Shown here: piece by piece, positions 2,428 to 9,710 of the stretch | Layout of the letters: the number at the start of each line of letters is the position of its first letter | Position numbering within the stretch: the stretch's first letter is position 1 | IMG/VR virus record: IMGVR_UViG_2531839663_000002 | Reading direction: 5' to 3' (one strand) | Source of the DNA: a virus | Lineage: Duplodnaviria > Heunggongvirae > Uroviricota > Caudoviricetes | Length of the DNA stretch: 9,710 bases | Notes under the pieces: model-generated | The model's input: only the letters and a program-made list of their open reading frames with translations | Databases searched by the model: none | Told to the model about the DNA's origin: nothing | Position numbers and translations under genes: made by a program

Positions 2428-4317
2428 TTAATCGTGTTTTGGCCATACTTTCAATGCAATTTCCCCCAACTTTTTACCCCGCTCCAGGATTTCACCCTCA
2501 TCCCATTTATCCTTAAGTATAAGTGGTATGTTCAGTCGTAGATTGGTGTGGACGATGAGAGCATCACGTTTTTTCAGAAATACAGCATTCTGAACAGAAC
2601 GGTTTACGCTAAGGTTAAGCAAAGTTAGATTTCCCAACGTAGCTATCGCTTGTTGCCGTTTCCTTACCAGTAGCTGCTCAGGGGTAAGATCTGTTCCAGA
2701 CAGAACAATTTGGTTCAATACCGTTGCATCTGAATTTGTCACCATATGACCATTTTCGAGAGGCCAACAGGAATACCAACTTTGAGGCATAAGATGATCG
2801 ATATCGAGATTGGAAAGATTTGGAACATCAGGCTTCTCTGTCTTCACTTGGCGACAAAGTTCTCTTTCAAGTTCCGTTAACATTGAGCGCATTTTCGGTG
2901 CGTCGAGCCTGCCAGGATAAAGTGGAGCATTGATGCAAGCATTGAGAAATTCTGAGTCACCAGGCCAACGTGAGGCTTCGCCATTTAAGCTATTGAGGAT
3001 ATTACGTAACTCAACACTGGAAATTTCCGTTTTAGACAAGTGCCGCAATACATTCATAAATACATTGTTGTAATTCTTTGGCGTCAGGCCACATACGGCT
3101 CTTCGTACTACGTAGGAGACAAGATCATTATACATGGCTGCTTTCTCATCATCGGCGATATTAGCTATCGAAATGAACAAAGCAAGCGGATAAAGTGTCG
3201 TCACATCATAGGCTGCGATGCGATGTCCAAAGTGTGAGATGGGGGTTGTGCCAAAACCACCAACTAATTCTTTATATTGTGATGCATATTGTTTGAGGCG
3301 CTTTACTTGCAGATCAGCTCGTTGTGAAGGCAAGTCCTTACTTACATAATCACGATACTCATTGTAAAGACGAGACAGATCAATTTCACGTTGCCTTTCT
3401 GATTGCAATGTCGCATGCACTAGCCACTCCATGCGTGGTTTATTAATACGTCCACGGCGTTGCCTTTCCGACCAGTATGTATCTTCAAAGCTCTTCCACT
3501 CATTTTCATATAATTCAATAGCATTAATATTTTCATGCTCAGCGCACATAAAGATGTAGTTGCGAATAAGATCCGTGGCATGAAGTTCCGCCCCTCGGCC
3601 ATTTAATGTTTCAAAAATTATTTGGGCATCATCTTCAGCTTCGAGAAATATGCTTACCAGTTTCAGATCCGTCAAGACAGCCTCAATTAGTGCTACAGCA
3701 TTTTCATGTGGTGAGTACTGTTCTATTTTAATCCATTTTATAAAGGCTTCAGTAAAAAACCATAATGCCTCTAGTGACGGCGGGTGGTTGAAATGTTTAC
3801 GTAACGTACCATGTTGCGTGAAGCTATCAGAAAATACATCACGGAGATCGTCAATGTTTTCAACATTAAAACTTTGAATAAAATGAGTTTGGTCTCGAAA
3901 AGTTGGCCACAGTTTGAAGCATTCTACCTTTTTATTTCGCATAGTTGCTTCGTTTGTATTTTTCAAGCAAGTCAATACTAACCCTTCCAAATCAGAAAGG
4001 CCTGTAGCACGCAATGATAATCGAATGGATGCCAGAATATATTGAAGAGTGGTTAAACGTTGCTGGCCGTCAATAATATGTATGGTATCTACACCTAACA
4101 AGCTGTTTTTGAGTTGAGGTTCCAGCACCACCGCGCCAAGGAAATGGGGAGTTGGTTTTGTTCCCAAAAGTCGGCTATGTGCTTTTTCGAAGATATCCTC
4201 CAGCAAAGCTGACCATTGGTTTTGTTGCGTCCATACGTAGGCACGTTGATAGAATGGAACACGATATTGTCGTTGATTTTGGAAAAGTTGCTGGATGGTT
4301 AGCGTTTCGGATTTCAT
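2428..4317 (-). CDS. GmrSD-family type IV (modification-dependent) restriction endonuclease, DUF262 + DUF1524 architecture
   Basis: 629-aa ORF. N-terminal region has the DUF262 hallmark DGQQR (aa 83-87, ...IHIIDGQQRLTTL) with upstream YRVPFYQRAYVW; C-terminal region has an HNH/His-Me-like DIDHLMPQSW ... NLTLLNLSVNRSVQN pattern typical of DUF1524. Confidence 0.8.
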   Translation of the reverse strand: MKSETLTIQQLFQNQRQYRVPFYQRAYVWTQQNQWSALLEDIFEKAHSRLLGTKPTPHFLGAVVLEPQLKNSLLGVDTIHIIDGQQRLTTLQYILASIRLSLRATGLSDLEGLVLTCLKNTNEATMRNKKVECFKLWPTFRDQTHFIQSFNVENIDDLRDVFSDSFTQHGTLRKHFNHPPSLEALWFFTEAFIKWIKIEQYSPHENAVALIEAVLTDLKLVSIFLEAEDDAQIIFETLNGRGAELHATDLIRNYIFMCAEHENINAIELYENEWKSFEDTYWSERQRRGRINKPRMEWLVHATLQSERQREIDLSRLYNEYRDYVSKDLPSQRADLQVKRLKQYASQYKELVGGFGTTPISHFGHRIAAYDVTTLYPLALFISIANIADDEKAAMYNDLVSYVVRRAVCGLTPKNYNNVFMNVLRHLSKTEISSVELRNILNSLNGEASRWPGDSEFLNACINAPLYPGRLDAPKMRSMLTELERELCRQVKTEKPDVPNLSNLDIDHLMPQSWYSCWPLENGHMVTNSDATVLNQIVLSGTDLTPEQLLVRKRQQAIATLGNLTLLNLSVNRSVQNAVFLKKRDALIVHTNLRLNIPLILKDKWDEGEILERGKKLGEIALKVWPKHD

Positions 4318-4874
4318 TGTTTACCTATAAGTGACATTCCACAAGAGTAAGAAATTCATCTGAGTCAGAATAATCATTTTTATGTAGTCATGATACAGTG
4401 TATTTGTTGCTGGTGAAGTAAAAACGAGAAATCCCGCTTTTGAATGCTGACGTGCTACGGTTTCATTGGATATTCTCTTTTGTCTGTTCTCCATTGCGTC
4501 GGTGTTTTTTCGAGATTGTTAGCACATTGTTGCTGCTGTTTTTTTATCCAAGCGCTGCTAAATCATTGTAGATGGCACTATCGGGTATTGAAGCTGCAGA
4601 CATGTCGTATACAATAGTCAGCTGCGACTGGCTGGTGAACTTCCGATAGTGCGAGTATTGAATGATTTCCAACTGTTATCGATTTTGCGTATTTTTTGCA
4701 TGAGAGGATTTTTACCTCCTCCCACCGATCCTCCATGGCTTTACGCCAGTGTCTCTGGTCTGCTATGTACCAGAAGCGGAAGTTGTGTCTGTTAGTATGA
4801 TATTATAATTACACTCGCTTATAATAAGCCCACAATACAGATATAAAAATATCTCAACGCTTGGGAGTTAACAA

Positions 4875-5336
4875 ATGATTAACTTTACTGAAATTGATAG
4901 TGACGGTGAAGCCTGGGAGTCATTTGCCCGTGATTTTCTTGAAGAACTTGGCTTTTATATTGAATCCGCGCCAGATAGAGGTGCAGATGGAGGTAAAGAT
5001 CTTTTAATCACAGAGCAATTGCAAGGTCAGTTAAATAAATATAAATTTCGTTGGCTTGTTAGCTGTAAACATTATGCAACAAGTAAAAAATCAGTTTCAG
5101 AAAAGGATGAGATTAATATACAAGAACGTATTGATGGATTCAATGCCGACGGATTTATTGGATTTTACTCAACACTGCCAAGTAGTGGTTTAAATTCAAG
5201 AATGACGCAATTAAAAGAGAATGGAAAAATAAAGGACTTTCGATTCTTTGATGGTAAATTAATTGAAAATCACTTAGTCAGAATTGGTTACTCAAAACTA
5301 CTCCTTAGATACTTTCCTGAGAGCTATAAAAAATAA
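4875..5336 (+). CDS. Small stand-alone Mrr-cat-like (PD-(D/E)xK fold) restriction-endonuclease domain protein
   Basis: 153-aa ORF with GGGAG Shine-Dalgarno about 8 nt before the ATG. Motifs GADGGKDLL (4980..5006) and FRWLVSCKHY resemble the Mrr catalytic core (GDGGIDL ... QCKRY). No N-terminal DNA-binding domain. Confidence 0.65.
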   Translation: MINFTEIDSDGEAWESFARDFLEELGFYIESAPDRGADGGKDLLITEQLQGQLNKYKFRWLVSCKHYATSKKSVSEKDEINIQERIDGFNADGFIGFYSTLPSSGLNSRMTQLKENGKIKDFRFFDGKLIENHLVRIGYSKLLLRYFPESYKK

Positions 5337-5347
5337 AACCCAAGCAT

Positions 5348-5785
5348 TTGATTTTTGATAAGTACTTACCTATAAAATGTGATCGTTGTGGAAAGGACTT
5401 AATAGAAAACCATCATGAAGAAAATTATGATGGCATTGTGTGCAATGCAGAGATCATACACGATGACAAACCAAATGAGGTGATAGCGGTTTATTATGCG
5501 TGTAAAGGTGATTGTGATAAGCATTTTGAGGATTATTTTTGGAATGAATATAAAGCGATTACGAGATGGCAGGATATAAGTGATCTAGCCATCCCATTAT
5601 TCTATCTCAAATGGATTATGGGGACATTTAATGAACTTGAGTATGGAAGGAAAACATATACCAAAGAAGCCTTCAATAAAACAAAGGAGATAACATTAGC
5701 GCTATCTCAAATTGTTATGAGAGAAATGACAGAAAAAGAAAGAGAAAGAGTGATGGCTTTGAATTCACTACCTGATTACATATAA
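5348..5785 (+). CDS. Cys-rich hypothetical protein (possible C4 zinc ribbon), likely co-transcribed with the upstream Mrr-cat gene
   Basis: 145-aa ORF starting 12 nt after the upstream stop, same strand. Only a TTG start is in frame and no clear Shine-Dalgarno is seen. CxxC (CDRC) plus CxxxC (CKGDC) could form a zinc ribbon; no recognisable family. Confidence 0.5.
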   Translation: MIFDKYLPIKCDRCGKDLIENHHEENYDGIVCNAEIIHDDKPNEVIAVYYACKGDCDKHFEDYFWNEYKAITRWQDISDLAIPLFYLKWIMGTFNELEYGRKTYTKEAFNKTKEITLALSQIVMREMTEKERERVMALNSLPDYI

Positions 5786-5958
5786 ATTATATTTACTAAC
5801 ATTTGAACTAGCGCATCTTTGGTGCAGAGACACCACCATCTTGGGGACACTGTGAGGCCACTGGCTTCCCAACTTATCGTTATACAGGATAATAAGGTGC
5901 TCCAGGGTAGCTATGAACTTGATGTTACGTCTGCGATTTGCTCATAAGGGACAACCAT

Positions 5959-5991
5959 ACTCAAATCTCCCACATTGCAGGAGATTTGAGT
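5959..5991 (+). promoter_or_regulatory. Hairpin sequestering the Shine-Dalgarno of the tyrosine recombinase gene
   Basis: Perfect 12-bp inverted repeat ACTCAAATCTCC (5959..5970) / GGAGATTTGAGT (5980..5991) with 9-nt loop; the right arm contains GGAG and ends one base before ATG 5992. Confidence 0.5.
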
Positions 5992-6594
5992 ATGAACACG
6001 TCACCGTGGAACAAAGACCGTATCATCGGCCAAAAAAGACCACTTCAGATATCTCATATCTGGGGGATCCGAATCCGGCTTGAACTGGAAGGTAAAACGC
6101 GCGATTTAGCTCAGTTCGATATGGCCCTGGACAGTAAGCTACGAGGCTGTGATCTGGTCAAACTCAAAGTATCTGATGTTGCATATGGTAGCTCTGCTTC
6201 AAGCAGAGCTACGGTGCTGCAACAGAAAACCGGTAGCCCTGTGCAGTTTGAGATAACCAAAGGGACAAGAGAAGCTGTTGCTGCATTGATAATGCTTGGC
6301 AATTTGCATAGTAAAGACTTCTTGTTTCGGTTTCTGGTCGGAACTAATTAGCTCATATCTACCCGGCAATACAACCGAATTTTTCATGGGTGGGTAGAAA
6401 AGCTTGGTCTCGAAGATTCGCTTTACAGCACTCATTCCATGAGAAGAACAAAACCTTACCTGATCTACAAGAAAACCAAGAATCTTCGGGTGATCCAACT
6501 TCTGTTGGGCCATAAGAAACTGGAAAGCACAGTCCGTTATCTGGGTATTGAAGTAGATGATGTGTTAGAGATCTCTGAATCGATTGAAGTCTAA
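5992..6594 (+). pseudogene. Compact (~200 aa) tyrosine recombinase/integrase (catalytic domain only) interrupted by an in-frame TAG at 6349..6351
   Basis: One frame runs 5992..6594 with a single TAG at 6349..6351. Before it: LRGCDLVKLKVSDV...QQKTGSPVQFEITKGTREAV (box I Arg). After it: HSMRRTKPYLIYKKTKNLRVIQLLLGHKKLESTVRYLGIEVDD (H-x-x-R, His, RY Tyr). The downstream part is missing from the ORF track only for lack of a start codon. Confidence 0.8.
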
Positions 6595-6600
6595 GGTTGT

Positions 6601-6622
6601 CAGGGCTGCAACAACAGCCCTG
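6601..6622 (+). other. GC-rich stem-loop just after the recombinase stop codon
   Basis: CAGGGCTG (6601..6608), loop CAACAA, CAGCCCTG (6615..6622); no following T-tract, so not a canonical intrinsic terminator. A TTGACA hexamer follows at 6633..6638. Confidence 0.35.
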
Positions 6623-6717
6623 TGCCAGGAGTTGACACTGTTAGCATCGCGCTATGTTAATTTATGTTGAGCAGTTAAAAATGATAATGTAGTTTATATG
6701 GATAATCAGTTTATAGA

Positions 6718-7599
6718 GTGGGTGAGATGGAACTAGATGAAACACTTGAAGTTATCAAAAATAATTTTAGTAATAATCAGAAGAAACTATTTAAAAGGAT
6801 TGAGCCAGCCACTAACCGTCAAGTAGCTATCGGTCTTATTAGTTTACAAGGAGTGGAAAAAACATCTCAGGCTGAGATAGAGGTAATTGCCGGCCTCATA
6901 TCTCAGTTTAGTCCATTGGAAATCGATAGTTTTCAAAATTCACCACGACGAATAACTCTGAAAGGTCAATTCCCAAACGGACATATTGTTTATATCGAGC
7001 CTCAGTATAAGGTTGGCAATATAAACCCAAAAGCCCAGCCTTGGGCAATAGACCTTGTCCTTAGACTAAATAGATGGATTGGTCAAGATTTGGTTGAGAT
7101 TGCTGCTATTGGCATCGAGTATGATGGCCACATAGCTCATTATGTGGAAAGTAAAATTAAGTCTACTTACAAGCGTGATGCAGTAATAACTAGTAACGAA
7201 GGATTTCAATCGATTAGGATCTCACCAGAACAATGGAAATCGTCTAAAGAGGATCTTAAGAAGGCAATTAAAAAGTATTTTGAACATCACATAAAAAAAA
7301 TTGAAAAAGTTCAACTAAGCACAATAAACGCCCAAAATTTCAACAATTTTATTTATGAAAATGAAAATGAAGTGATATCCACTGTAACTTGCCCTTTATG
7401 TAATGGAAAAGGCAGTTTAGCGGGAGAAGATTGTCCGATCTGTAATGGAATGGGATCCGTAAAAAGATATATTGCTGCAAAGGTGAATCTTTCTAATTAT
7501 GAAAAATTCACTTGTCCTGACTGCAGGAATATAAAATTAGATTGCAGAACCTGCAATGGTGAAGGATCAATTAGCAGAGAAAAAGCATTAGAAATGTAA
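6718..7599 (+). CDS. Fusion protein: DUF559/Vsr-like PD-(D/E)xK nuclease domain plus C-terminal DnaJ-type CxxCxGxG zinc finger
   Basis: 293-aa ORF (GTG 6718 or ATG 6727 start, ambiguous). Central AIDLVL...AIGIEYDGHIAHY...KRDAVITSNEGFQSIRIS matches the DUF559 pattern (IExDGxxH ... RDxx ... GxxxxR). C-terminus has CPLCNGKG, CPICNGMG, CPDCRN, CRTCNGEG (about 7390..7566), as in the DnaJ cysteine-rich domain. Confidence 0.7.
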   Translation: MGEMELDETLEVIKNNFSNNQKKLFKRIEPATNRQVAIGLISLQGVEKTSQAEIEVIAGLISQFSPLEIDSFQNSPRRITLKGQFPNGHIVYIEPQYKVGNINPKAQPWAIDLVLRLNRWIGQDLVEIAAIGIEYDGHIAHYVESKIKSTYKRDAVITSNEGFQSIRISPEQWKSSKEDLKKAIKKYFEHHIKKIEKVQLSTINAQNFNNFIYENENEVISTVTCPLCNGKGSLAGEDCPICNGMGSVKRYIAAKVNLSNYEKFTCPDCRNIKLDCRTCNGEGSISREKALEM

Positions 7600-7904
7600 T
7601 GATAAAAGTAAACCTAAATAATTTAGTGTAATGTCTGCTTTTCGCTCATAACAGACATAAACTTCAGTTATGGCATAAAGGTATGCATGCTGGGTGGGGA
7701 AAGTATGAAGGAAAAGAAGACTGCTGCGCCGTTTGTCGTCACGTTTATCTTCATTGGCTATGTAAGTCGTAATACAAGGTGGGACAAAACTGAGACACAT
7801 AAGGCCTCGCAATGGCTTGCAAGGCTTTACATGTTTTGATGTGGTGGGACGTGTGAGCGCAGTGTTGATGGGGTAATGCTTTGAATTAGAAGCGGATTCT
7901 TATA

Positions 7905-7950
7905 ATTCGTAATGCGAAGGTCGTAGGTTCGACTCCTATTATCGGCACCA
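7905..7950 (+). other. 3' fragment (~46 nt) of tRNA-Thr(CGU), thrW-like; attachment-site remnant marking the end of an integrated element
   Basis: ATTCGTAATGCGAAGGTCGTAGGTTCGACTCCTATTATCGGCACCA matches the 3' part of E. coli thrW as remembered (anticodon-loop CGT, T-arm GGTTCGACTCC, acceptor end with CCA). Sequence upstream of 7905 does not match the tRNA 5' half, so this is not an intact gene. Confidence 0.75.
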
Positions 7951-8637: not shown

Positions 8638-8804
8638 CTAGAGACAAAGTCGCTTACTTAGCTTCCCTGTTTCGATGTTGCAACTCACATATTTTTAACT
8701 TTCAGAATGTGTTACCCAATAGTTCGTGCTAATGCTACTATTTGTATTCAATCGGATTAATGATGTTGTTACGCGAGTCCATTGAACTAAACATAAGGGA
8801 GTAT

Positions 8805-9330
8805 ATGGGGTTAGCTGAAACATTAGTTAGTATTCCGCAGTCTGAAAGAGGCGGTGAGATTGCTCAACGTGGGTTTGACTATCAAACTTGCTGGGCTTTA
8901 TCTCAAATGCTGGAATATGAACTAGATGAAAAGAACTATGTGTTTATCTTCGAATATCATGATGATGTTCTTATTCTTGATGACGAAGTTTCTCCAACAC
9001 AACTCACATTTGCTCAAGTAAAAACAAGAGAGAAACACTGGACTGCATCCACTCTTAGTAATAGCACCAAGAAGAACCCAATATCTATCATCGGTAAGTT
9101 ATTTATTCATCAAAAGAATTTCGCCGAATATTCACCCAAGCTCCTTTTTGTTACTAATGCTTCTTTCAATCTATGTGAGGAAAACGGTGGTAAGTCTTGT
9201 TTTGGTGCAAATGAAGTCAAAGTGGAGTATCAGACGAGCTTTAAGAAAGCAATCAAAGATCAAGTAAAGCTTGATGACTCCAGTATCGATCTTTCTGTTA
9301 TGCGTTTCGTTCAATCCTCATTAAGCCTAG
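8805..9330 (+). pseudogene. PD-(D/E)xK-like nuclease-domain gene (resembles DUF4297-type domains of defence proteins), 3'-truncated by IS5
   Basis: ATG at 8805 with AAGGGA Shine-Dalgarno at 8795..8800. Motifs GFDYQTCWAL, EYHDDVLILDD and FAQVKT fit a D...(E/Q)xK core. The frame continues into the IS5 terminus from 9331; the last residues GKVRTSP are IS-encoded, so the native C-terminus is missing. Confidence 0.6.

Positions 9331-9710
<380 letters not shown>

Follow-up and report, generated by a model that had tools for sequence, protein, structure and literature searches.

A conserved hairpin over the Shine-Dalgarno sequence and start codon of a small tyrosine recombinase gene, a probable translational silencer beside exchangeable cargo

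In this work we have analysed a stretch of 9,710 nucleotides of viral DNA (Caudoviricetes, IMG/VR record IMGVR_UViG_2531839663_000002), called here the window, the middle of which carries a gene for a small tyrosine recombinase with a hairpin at its start, cargo genes on either side, and recombination half-sites between them. The features of this region, in their order along the + strand, are the following.

4758..4784, + strand: lone right half-site (R-half), GTCTGCT-ATGTACCAGA-AGCGGAA-GTT, left border of a variable slot in E. coli
4785..5926, + strand: cargo cassette A, Mrr-like restriction endonuclease, co-directional with the recombinase gene and split by a 1-nt deletion at about 5334
5927..5952, + strand: left half-site (L-half), ACGTCTGCGATTTGCTCATAAGGGAC, consensus ACGTCCGCT-yyTCGCTCAyA-AGGGAC, found with an nhmmer site model
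5956..5970, + strand: hairpin 5' arm, CATACTCAAATCTCC, found by inverted-repeat search, its first six bases (CATACT) resembling a -10 hexamer
5971..5979, + strand: hairpin loop, CACATTGCA, 9 nt, variable among homologues
5980..5994, + strand: hairpin 3' arm, GGAGATTTGAGTATG, with the GGAG Shine-Dalgarno at 5980-5983, an 8-nt spacer and the ATG at 5992-5994
5992..6594, + strand: tyrosine recombinase gene, 200 aa, catalytic domain only, a pseudogene in the window (PF00589; alignment with strain 30EVA1)
6601..6622, + strand: second conserved hairpin, CAGGGCTG-caacaa-CAGCCCTG, just after the recombinase stop and abutting the R-half
6615..6639, + strand: R-half, degenerate, ..GTGCCAGG-AGTTGAC-ACT, consensus GTGCCAGA-AGCGGAC-GTT
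6640..7630, + strand: cargo cassette B, 293-aa protein with a DnaJ-type zinc finger and a weak REase_MTES_1575 match
7631..7658, + strand: lone L-half, ATGTCTGCT-TTTCGCTCATA-ACAGACAT, right border of the variable slot

Some features of the remainder of the window are mentioned here briefly. At its left end a perfect 237-bp inverted repeat (1-237 and 2122-2358) encloses 1.9 kb with alternative tail-fibre and tail-fibre-assembly genes, to all appearances an invertible segment of the Mu G / e14 P type, and adjoining it is a truncated Pin-like serine invertase gene (2167-2394), of which 75 codons remain and which is changed close to the catalytic serine (YVFVST). A gene on the - strand (2428-4317) codes for a 629-aa type IV restriction enzyme of the GmrSD type (DUF262/DUF1524), and replaces the 3' end of pinE and the GIY-YIG gene present there in strain 30EVA1. 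To the right of the recombinase region, positions 7915-7950 hold the 3' part of a tRNA-Thr gene; this fragment is likely the copy of the attachment site that marks one end of a CP4-6-like prophage, and no complete tRNA gene was found in the window. A gene for a Cap4-type dsDNA endonuclease (8742-9353), the effector domain of CBASS systems, is interrupted at its 3' end by a copy of IS5 (9331-9710), whose terminal repeat begins at 9331.

The open reading frame that starts at the ATG at 5992 is ended by an amber codon at 6349-6351 (CAG to TAG, Q120*), as seen by comparison with E. coli 30EVA1, whose DNA is 99.7% identical. The orthologue of this strain is intact, its RefSeq-annotated 603-nt CDS has the same start codon, and its product matches Pfam family PF00589 (Phage_integrase) over residues 34-184. 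The search for homologues gave 7,997 proteins at E<=1e-10, and the best 120 of these 7,997, which are 74-93% identical, come from Escherichia, Proteus, Pantoea, Idiomarina, Pseudoalteromonas and Cycloclasticus; judged by eye, the alignment retains the catalytic R..K..HxxR..H..Y pattern. Matches in NCBIfam were weak and generic, to Xer and invertase families (invertase family NF007371, E = 0.008), a PDB sequence search with the recombinase returned no relative, and the AlphaFold2 model of the protein, made with 21 close homologues, had a pLDDT of 38 and was unusable. The deletion in the Mrr-like endonuclease gene lies in an A-run, and in strain 30EVA1 the enzyme is an intact 303-aa protein encoded by a single CDS. 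Since the recombinase gene, its R-half (the outer arm of which is mutated, 6630-6639) and the neighbouring endonuclease gene are all damaged, the window copy is a relic.

The arms of the hairpin at the start of this gene (5956-5970 and 5980-5994) are 15 bp each and 100% complementary, and the ATG at 5992-5994 is paired with the CAT at 5956-5958, inside the stem. The initial annotation had placed at this point a perfect 12-bp hairpin whose right arm holds the GGAG Shine-Dalgarno and ends one base before the ATG. The place and the Shine-Dalgarno were right; the stem is longer than described there, 12 of its 15 pairs having been seen, and its 3' arm takes in the start codon itself. The folding energy, one of the checks proposed with that annotation, speaks for a real structure, with -25.1 kcal/mol for the RNA of 5945-6005 against -8.1 +/- 2.6 kcal/mol for shuffled sequences (z = -6.6; 0 of 200 shuffles as good), and the region folds as DNA with -14.3 kcal/mol (z = -6.3). 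By our own calculation, about 2e-4 perfect 15-bp repeats of this kind, inverted and with at most 20 nt of loop, are expected in 9.7 kb. An intrinsic (Rho-independent) terminator was considered and rejected: the stem is A+T-rich and is followed by AACACGTCACC, with no T-run, and a terminator scan made no call. An RNA thermometer of the ROSE or fourU type was also discarded, the stem having 15 perfect pairs and -25 kcal/mol at 37 C, and the Rfam search at the hairpin found no known regulatory RNA family.

To follow the hairpin through the family, 80 loci were taken, one genome per species, and the sequence upstream of each recombinase start was extracted. From about 80 loci, 45 distinct hairpin variants were aligned, ranging from Enterobacterales to Alteromonadales, two gammaproteobacterial orders. 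The stem is present in every full copy retrieved of the 5' region of the recombinase gene, and is kept with compensatory changes throughout the 45 variants, in agreement with the conservation that the initial annotation had named as a further check. In all 45 the base of the stem is CAU/AUG and its top CUCC/GGAG, which tells us that pairing to the start codon and to the Shine-Dalgarno is what is conserved; between these ends the arm sequences drift and the pairing is maintained. The strength of the stem is not uniform, with energies from -7.4 to -26.8 kcal/mol: in the copies of group B the stem is interrupted by a bulge and by an internal loop (-10 to -13 kcal/mol), and pair 4 is an A·C mismatch in 17 of the 45 variants. 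RNAalifold on a MAFFT alignment retained the top 6 pairs only, owing to gaps in the lower stem, and the stated 15-pair structure was used instead. On this structure 90.9% of the cells are paired, versus 17-49% when the partner is slid by 1-3 columns; changes on both sides occur at four pairs (C-G to A-U or U-A; A-U to G-C or U-A), and the observed covariation score was reached by none of 500 shuffles.

The direction of these changes is informative about which molecule folds. Sense and antisense fold energies are dominated by loop and end effects, and we used event counts instead, mapping pair changes by parsimony on a neighbour-joining tree built from 50 genes with hairpins in the 15/9/15 register. 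Watson-Crick pairs changed to G·U 13 times and to A·C three times, with two Watson-Crick to Watson-Crick double changes and two other events. A transition in duplex DNA yields both types of mismatch equally, so the excess of 13 over 3 (two-sided binomial p of about 0.02 by our own arithmetic, a bias that rests on 16 events) points to pairing of the + strand as a single strand, and indicates, as far as substitution patterns can, that this pairing is under selection. Given that the Shine-Dalgarno and the AUG fall within the stem every time, the mRNA is the natural candidate for the folded strand; G·T is also tolerated in a folded + strand of single-stranded DNA, and the substitution bias does not strictly separate the two. 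A search with the hairpin motif on both strands found it at recombinase starts only (128 matches), apart from truncated start remnants at two loci (L028 and L043) and two unrelated look-alikes. One locus of Escherichia whittamii (L050, 4940-5600) has a full-length recombinase ORF in which the L-half and the 5' hairpin arm are replaced by unrelated DNA, leaving no stem; judging by its sequence this is a natural 'unlocked' variant of the gene.

The hairpin lies at the border of a larger conserved unit. On its left the recombinase module ends sharply with the L-half, which stops 3 nt short of the hairpin: conservation begins abruptly about 29 nt before the hairpin, with the consensus AACGTCCGCTyyTCGCTCAyAAGGGAC, and among 72 loci a step in information content, from about 0 to above 1 bit, falls at -29..-25 relative to it. 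On the other side conservation stops about 45 nt after the stop codon (…CAGGGCTGCAACAGCAGCCCTGTGCCAGAAGCGGACGTT), and for about 13 nt the left end, AACGTCCGCTTCT, returns as its reverse complement in the consensus right end, AGAAGCGGACGTT. Each half-site is a 7-bp inverted repeat around a spacer of about 10 bp, GTCCGCT-N10-AGCGGAC, and the two types are told apart by the spacer, TCGCTCA in L and GTGCCAG in R. The second hairpin, at 6601-6622, has no T-run behind it and shows, by eye, compensatory variants in the copies from Colwellia, Idiomarina and Alteromonas; it may be an RNA 3' end or part of the site. Between the arms of the first hairpin and the GTCCGCT arms of the recombination sites there is no resemblance. 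A core site of the loxP/FRT/dif type was rejected on these grounds: the arms are unrelated to GTCCGCT/AGCGGAC, the motif lies at recombinase starts, and the breakpoints lie at half-sites.

The two module ends also occur joined by about 24 variable bases, as double sites of about 72 bp (ACGTCCGCT-ccTCGCTCAc-AGCGGAC…GTCCGCT-tcGTGCCAgg-AGCGGACGT) that are scattered through the loci. A site profile built from 13 copies and run over the loci found 188 non-overlapping sites with a median spacing of about 2 kb, 181 of them in the orientation of the recombinase gene and 7 opposite, and in several loci two recombinase copies stand in tandem. Covariation of the site arms within and between halves was uninformative, the regular expression having taken in many false sites and the deviations being too few. 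We set aside the reading of the module as a minimal IS with MITEs, given that the sites are co-oriented 181:7 and that lone R-half...L-half pairs bracket variable DNA, the latter at one E. coli locus.

The DNA between the sites is diverse. It includes genes for GNAT acetyltransferases (9 of 75), AraC regulators, dehydrogenases, hydrolases and transporters, and, as defence cargo, GmrSD and other type IV restriction enzymes, HNH proteins, a CBASS cyclase, a dGTPase and NsnA, the cargo genes having no strand preference (64:46). The same 1.9-kb cassette stands directly after the recombinase gene in Leclercia and Pantoea and one cassette further on in Yersinia. At the E. coli locus, a prophage end by yagP/paoD, the window and the strains 2017.03.02CC and 5735 share their flanks, the common left flank running up to the lone R-half at 4758-4784 and the common right flank beginning at the lone L-half at 7631-7658. 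Between these two half-sites they hold unrelated inserts, of 2.8 kb in the window, 2.0 kb in 2017.03.02CC and 1.1 kb in 5735, and among the three only the window-type insert has the recombinase. In about 170 E. coli genomes the match to the window stops at that lone R-half, and in about 140 it starts at that lone L-half. The same half-sites stand on either side of fun(Z) in phage P2 (R-half at 334-362 and L-half at 2429-2472 of the P2 locus, L087), as they do around the cargo at the P2 Z/fun position of Yersinia phage vB_YpM_22 (L085; 2648-2673 and 3988-4072), where this cargo is followed by the L-half, the hairpin and the first seven recombinase codons, which run into the phage terminator. 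The module is matched by 565 Klebsiella plasmid records, typically through this same 75-bp remnant. Taken at the level of sequence, these borders are evidence that the half-sites are exchange points for cassettes. Independent truncations of the recombinase gene just after codons 7-11 were seen at three loci (L028, 5362-5450; L043, 4144-4240; L085, 3988-4072), each adjoined by a small coding palindrome, CACGTCACCGTG, and this spot may be another breakpoint-prone site.

The best explanation of the hairpin is, in our judgement, that it is a cis-acting translational silencer which hides the ribosome-binding site and the start codon, probably of the IS10/IS50 type, directed against read-through transcripts; we hold this to be probable. 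As in leaders that sequester the ribosome-binding site, Shine-Dalgarno and start codon both lie inside the stem (GGAG and ATG in the 3' arm), and the structure has been kept with compensatory or wobble changes of the sense strand. Any transcript containing both arms would fold into the 15-bp stem, with about -22 to -25 kcal/mol, and the folded stem would bury the Shine-Dalgarno and the AUG of the recombinase gene, leaving 30S subunits unable to start. The predicted probabilities of being unpaired agree with this, at 0.001 for the Shine-Dalgarno and 0.006 for the AUG in read-through RNA (5860-6060, or from 5927), and at 0.24-0.35 and 0.42-0.64, respectively, for an RNA whose 5' end is at 5968-5972. 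The initial annotation had proposed that the fold blocks translation initiation of the recombinase, and the conserved pairing of Shine-Dalgarno and AUG, the G·U bias and the predicted occlusion argue for such an effect; its other suggestion, a binding site for a regulator, gains no support, a bias towards G·U being unlike a palindrome bound by protein as duplex DNA.

The purpose would most likely be insulation from read-through out of the exchangeable upstream cargo, which often points at the recombinase gene. This gene sits at the edge of the recombining unit, open to read-through, as the flank is unrelated between loci; in the window the upstream cargo gene (4875-5785) is co-directional with it, no + strand terminator is predicted before the hairpin, and transcripts from a promoter-like site in the variable flank (5866-5893) would hold both arms. 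To escape the fold and be translated, a transcript would have to begin within the 5' arm and so be without it. Here the hexamer CATAMT (CATACT in the window; CATAAT in other clades) is suggestive: its A2, T3, A4 and T6 are invariant in all 72 distinct upstream regions, A4 being kept also in those 17 of the 45 variants in which the base opposite it has become C. Used as a -10 element, CATAMT at 5956-5961 would put the transcription start near 5967-5969, and the L-half would then overlap the -35/spacer region, which could allow autoregulation. Around the stem, inspection by eye for sigma-70, sigma-E and sigma-54 motifs brought out only this -10-like hexamer, at 16-18 bp upstream of CATACT there is no acceptable -35 hexamer, and the site was not among the calls of the promoter scan; because there is neither a -35 element nor a promoter call, the internal start in the 5' arm is put forward as a conjecture. 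Alternatively, the hairpin might simply hold recombinase expression very low at all times.

Other readings of the hairpin have to be weighed against the silencing of read-through transcripts. One of them is a regulated switch, in which all transcripts carry the stem and translation needs its opening or cleavage, by RNase III, a small RNA, a helicase or a ribosome on an upstream frame. That we found no convincing internal promoter, and that the stem is too stable to open spontaneously, fit such a switch; against it, the 5' arm is not entered by any conserved reading frame from upstream, the flank being unrelated between loci and its information content about 0 upstream of -30, and the Rfam search found no known regulatory RNA at the hairpin and we identified no partner. 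We regard it as rather unlikely. A duplex-DNA operator, whose 15-bp arms would be bound by a dimeric regulator or by the recombinase so as to repress transcription, the overlap with Shine-Dalgarno and ATG being incidental, could account for a 15-9-15 geometry like that of protein-binding palindromes and simple tyrosine-recombinase sites, and for the position of the palindrome, which is 3 nt away from a recombinase half-site and covers a -10-like hexamer. Duplex DNA would, however, not distinguish G·U from A·C, for which we counted 13 and 3 events, the arms are unlike the GTCCGCT/AGCGGAC arms that mark every recombination site, and arm sequences that drift under maintained pairing, in a stem that in all variants ends exactly at the ATG and tops at the GGAG, are hard to reconcile with an operator, which is an unlikely explanation.

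It is also conceivable that the + strand folds as single-stranded DNA and that the hairpin is part of the recombination substrate, as integron attC sites fold, for example by bringing the distant L-half and R-half together with the help of the second hairpin at 6601-6622. Strong hairpins do abut both half-sites of the module, the DNA fold of the first is far below that of shuffles, the sites of about 72 bp are imperfect palindromes of attC-like layout, and the bias towards G·T fits such folding too. This reading nevertheless leaves unexplained why the stem constantly coincides with Shine-Dalgarno and ATG, the sites of about 72 bp that lack the recombinase gene have no such hairpin, and lone half-sites without a hairpin serve as breakpoints; we consider it improbable. 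That the palindrome is a product of chance, or a relic without function, could be argued from the dead recombinase gene of the window; its low expected frequency and its conservation with compensatory change, in 45 variants from two orders of Gammaproteobacteria, make this extremely improbable.

The silencing that we favour is of a known kind. In IS10 a mechanism called 'fold-back inhibition', with an equivalent in IS50, reportedly protects the transposase gene from external transcription. There, as in the module described here, an inverted repeat near the end of the element pairs with the initiation region of the enzyme's mRNA, so that read-through RNA is left untranslated, and the enzyme gene lies just inside the terminal recombination site. 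The differences are that IS10 and IS50 encode DDE transposases and this module a tyrosine recombinase, that the stem is here unusually long and perfect, and that the native promoter of IS10, pIN, has been mapped and gives a transcript lacking the 5' arm, whereas we infer the internal start from a -10-like hexamer.

The arrays resemble integrons in several respects: diverse cargo, promoter-less or self-contained, is separated by imperfect palindromes of about 72 bp in one orientation (181 + versus 7 -), these have the layout outer arm, spacer, inner arm and variable centre, and a tyrosine recombinase gene lies within the array. In contrast to integrons, the recombinase has 200 aa, has no IntI-specific insertion and found no integron-integrase family match in NCBIfam, its gene is inside a split site instead of beside an attI, and the cargo, which has no orientation bias, forms cassettes bounded by inverted half-sites. 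We rejected an identity with integrons on the absence of the IntI-type extra domain, PF00589 covering residues 34-184 of the 200 aa. The integron integrase is controlled by LexA, and is not known to be controlled by a hairpin over the ribosome-binding site. The shufflon of R64 (Rci and its sfx repeats) and the fim switch (FimB/FimE) likewise use small or simple tyrosine recombinases, of about 200 aa in the case of FimB and FimE, and short inverted sites that bracket segments. There, alternative gene ends or a promoter are switched, whereas here whole unrelated genes are exchanged between replicons, and the sequence similarity of our recombinase to the invertase family is negligible.

A known counterpart of these sites is found in P2-like phages, in which inverted repeats flank fun(Z) (Nilsson, Karlsson & Haggard-Ljungquist 2004, as reported in PMC8987985). 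Going by that secondary account, the inverted repeats around fun have thus been known since they were noted in 2004. The half-sites that bracket the cassettes of the window are the same as those bracketing fun(Z), with the difference that the window has a full-length recombinase gene, with one stop codon in it, between L-half and R-half. In the literature, in which the work of Nilsson et al. (2004) was consulted through a review, we found no paper linking the recombinase or the arrays to these repeats, and none on the enzyme, the double sites of about 72 bp, the arrays or the hairpin control themselves.

Putting the two lines together, we propose tentatively, as a possibility somewhat short of an even chance, that the hairpin is the expression lock of the enzyme which drives an integron-independent platform for cassette exchange, acting on GTCCGCT-N10-AGCGGAC half-sites across the Gammaproteobacteria. 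In such a platform the 200-aa recombinase would invert or swap whole cassettes (defence genes, GNAT acetyltransferases, regulators), and the exchange would take place among chromosomal arrays, prophage ends, plasmids and the P2 Z/fun hotspot.

What does the hairpin mean for these elements? Taken alone, it would add another example to the mobile-DNA enzymes whose silencing acts at translation initiation, of use to annotators and to those who wish to express the recombinase, and it tags the 5' end of a very widespread and highly conserved small recombinase gene. Where defence and accessory cassettes have been swapped, the classical P2 Z/fun anti-phage hotspot included, their borders fall on the half-sites that flank this gene. 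Should the recombinase act on these sites, this would provide a mechanism for the exchange of immunity genes at phage and chromosomal hotspots, and the hairpin, if the proposal is true, would explain how the enzyme stays quiet beside strongly expressed cargo.
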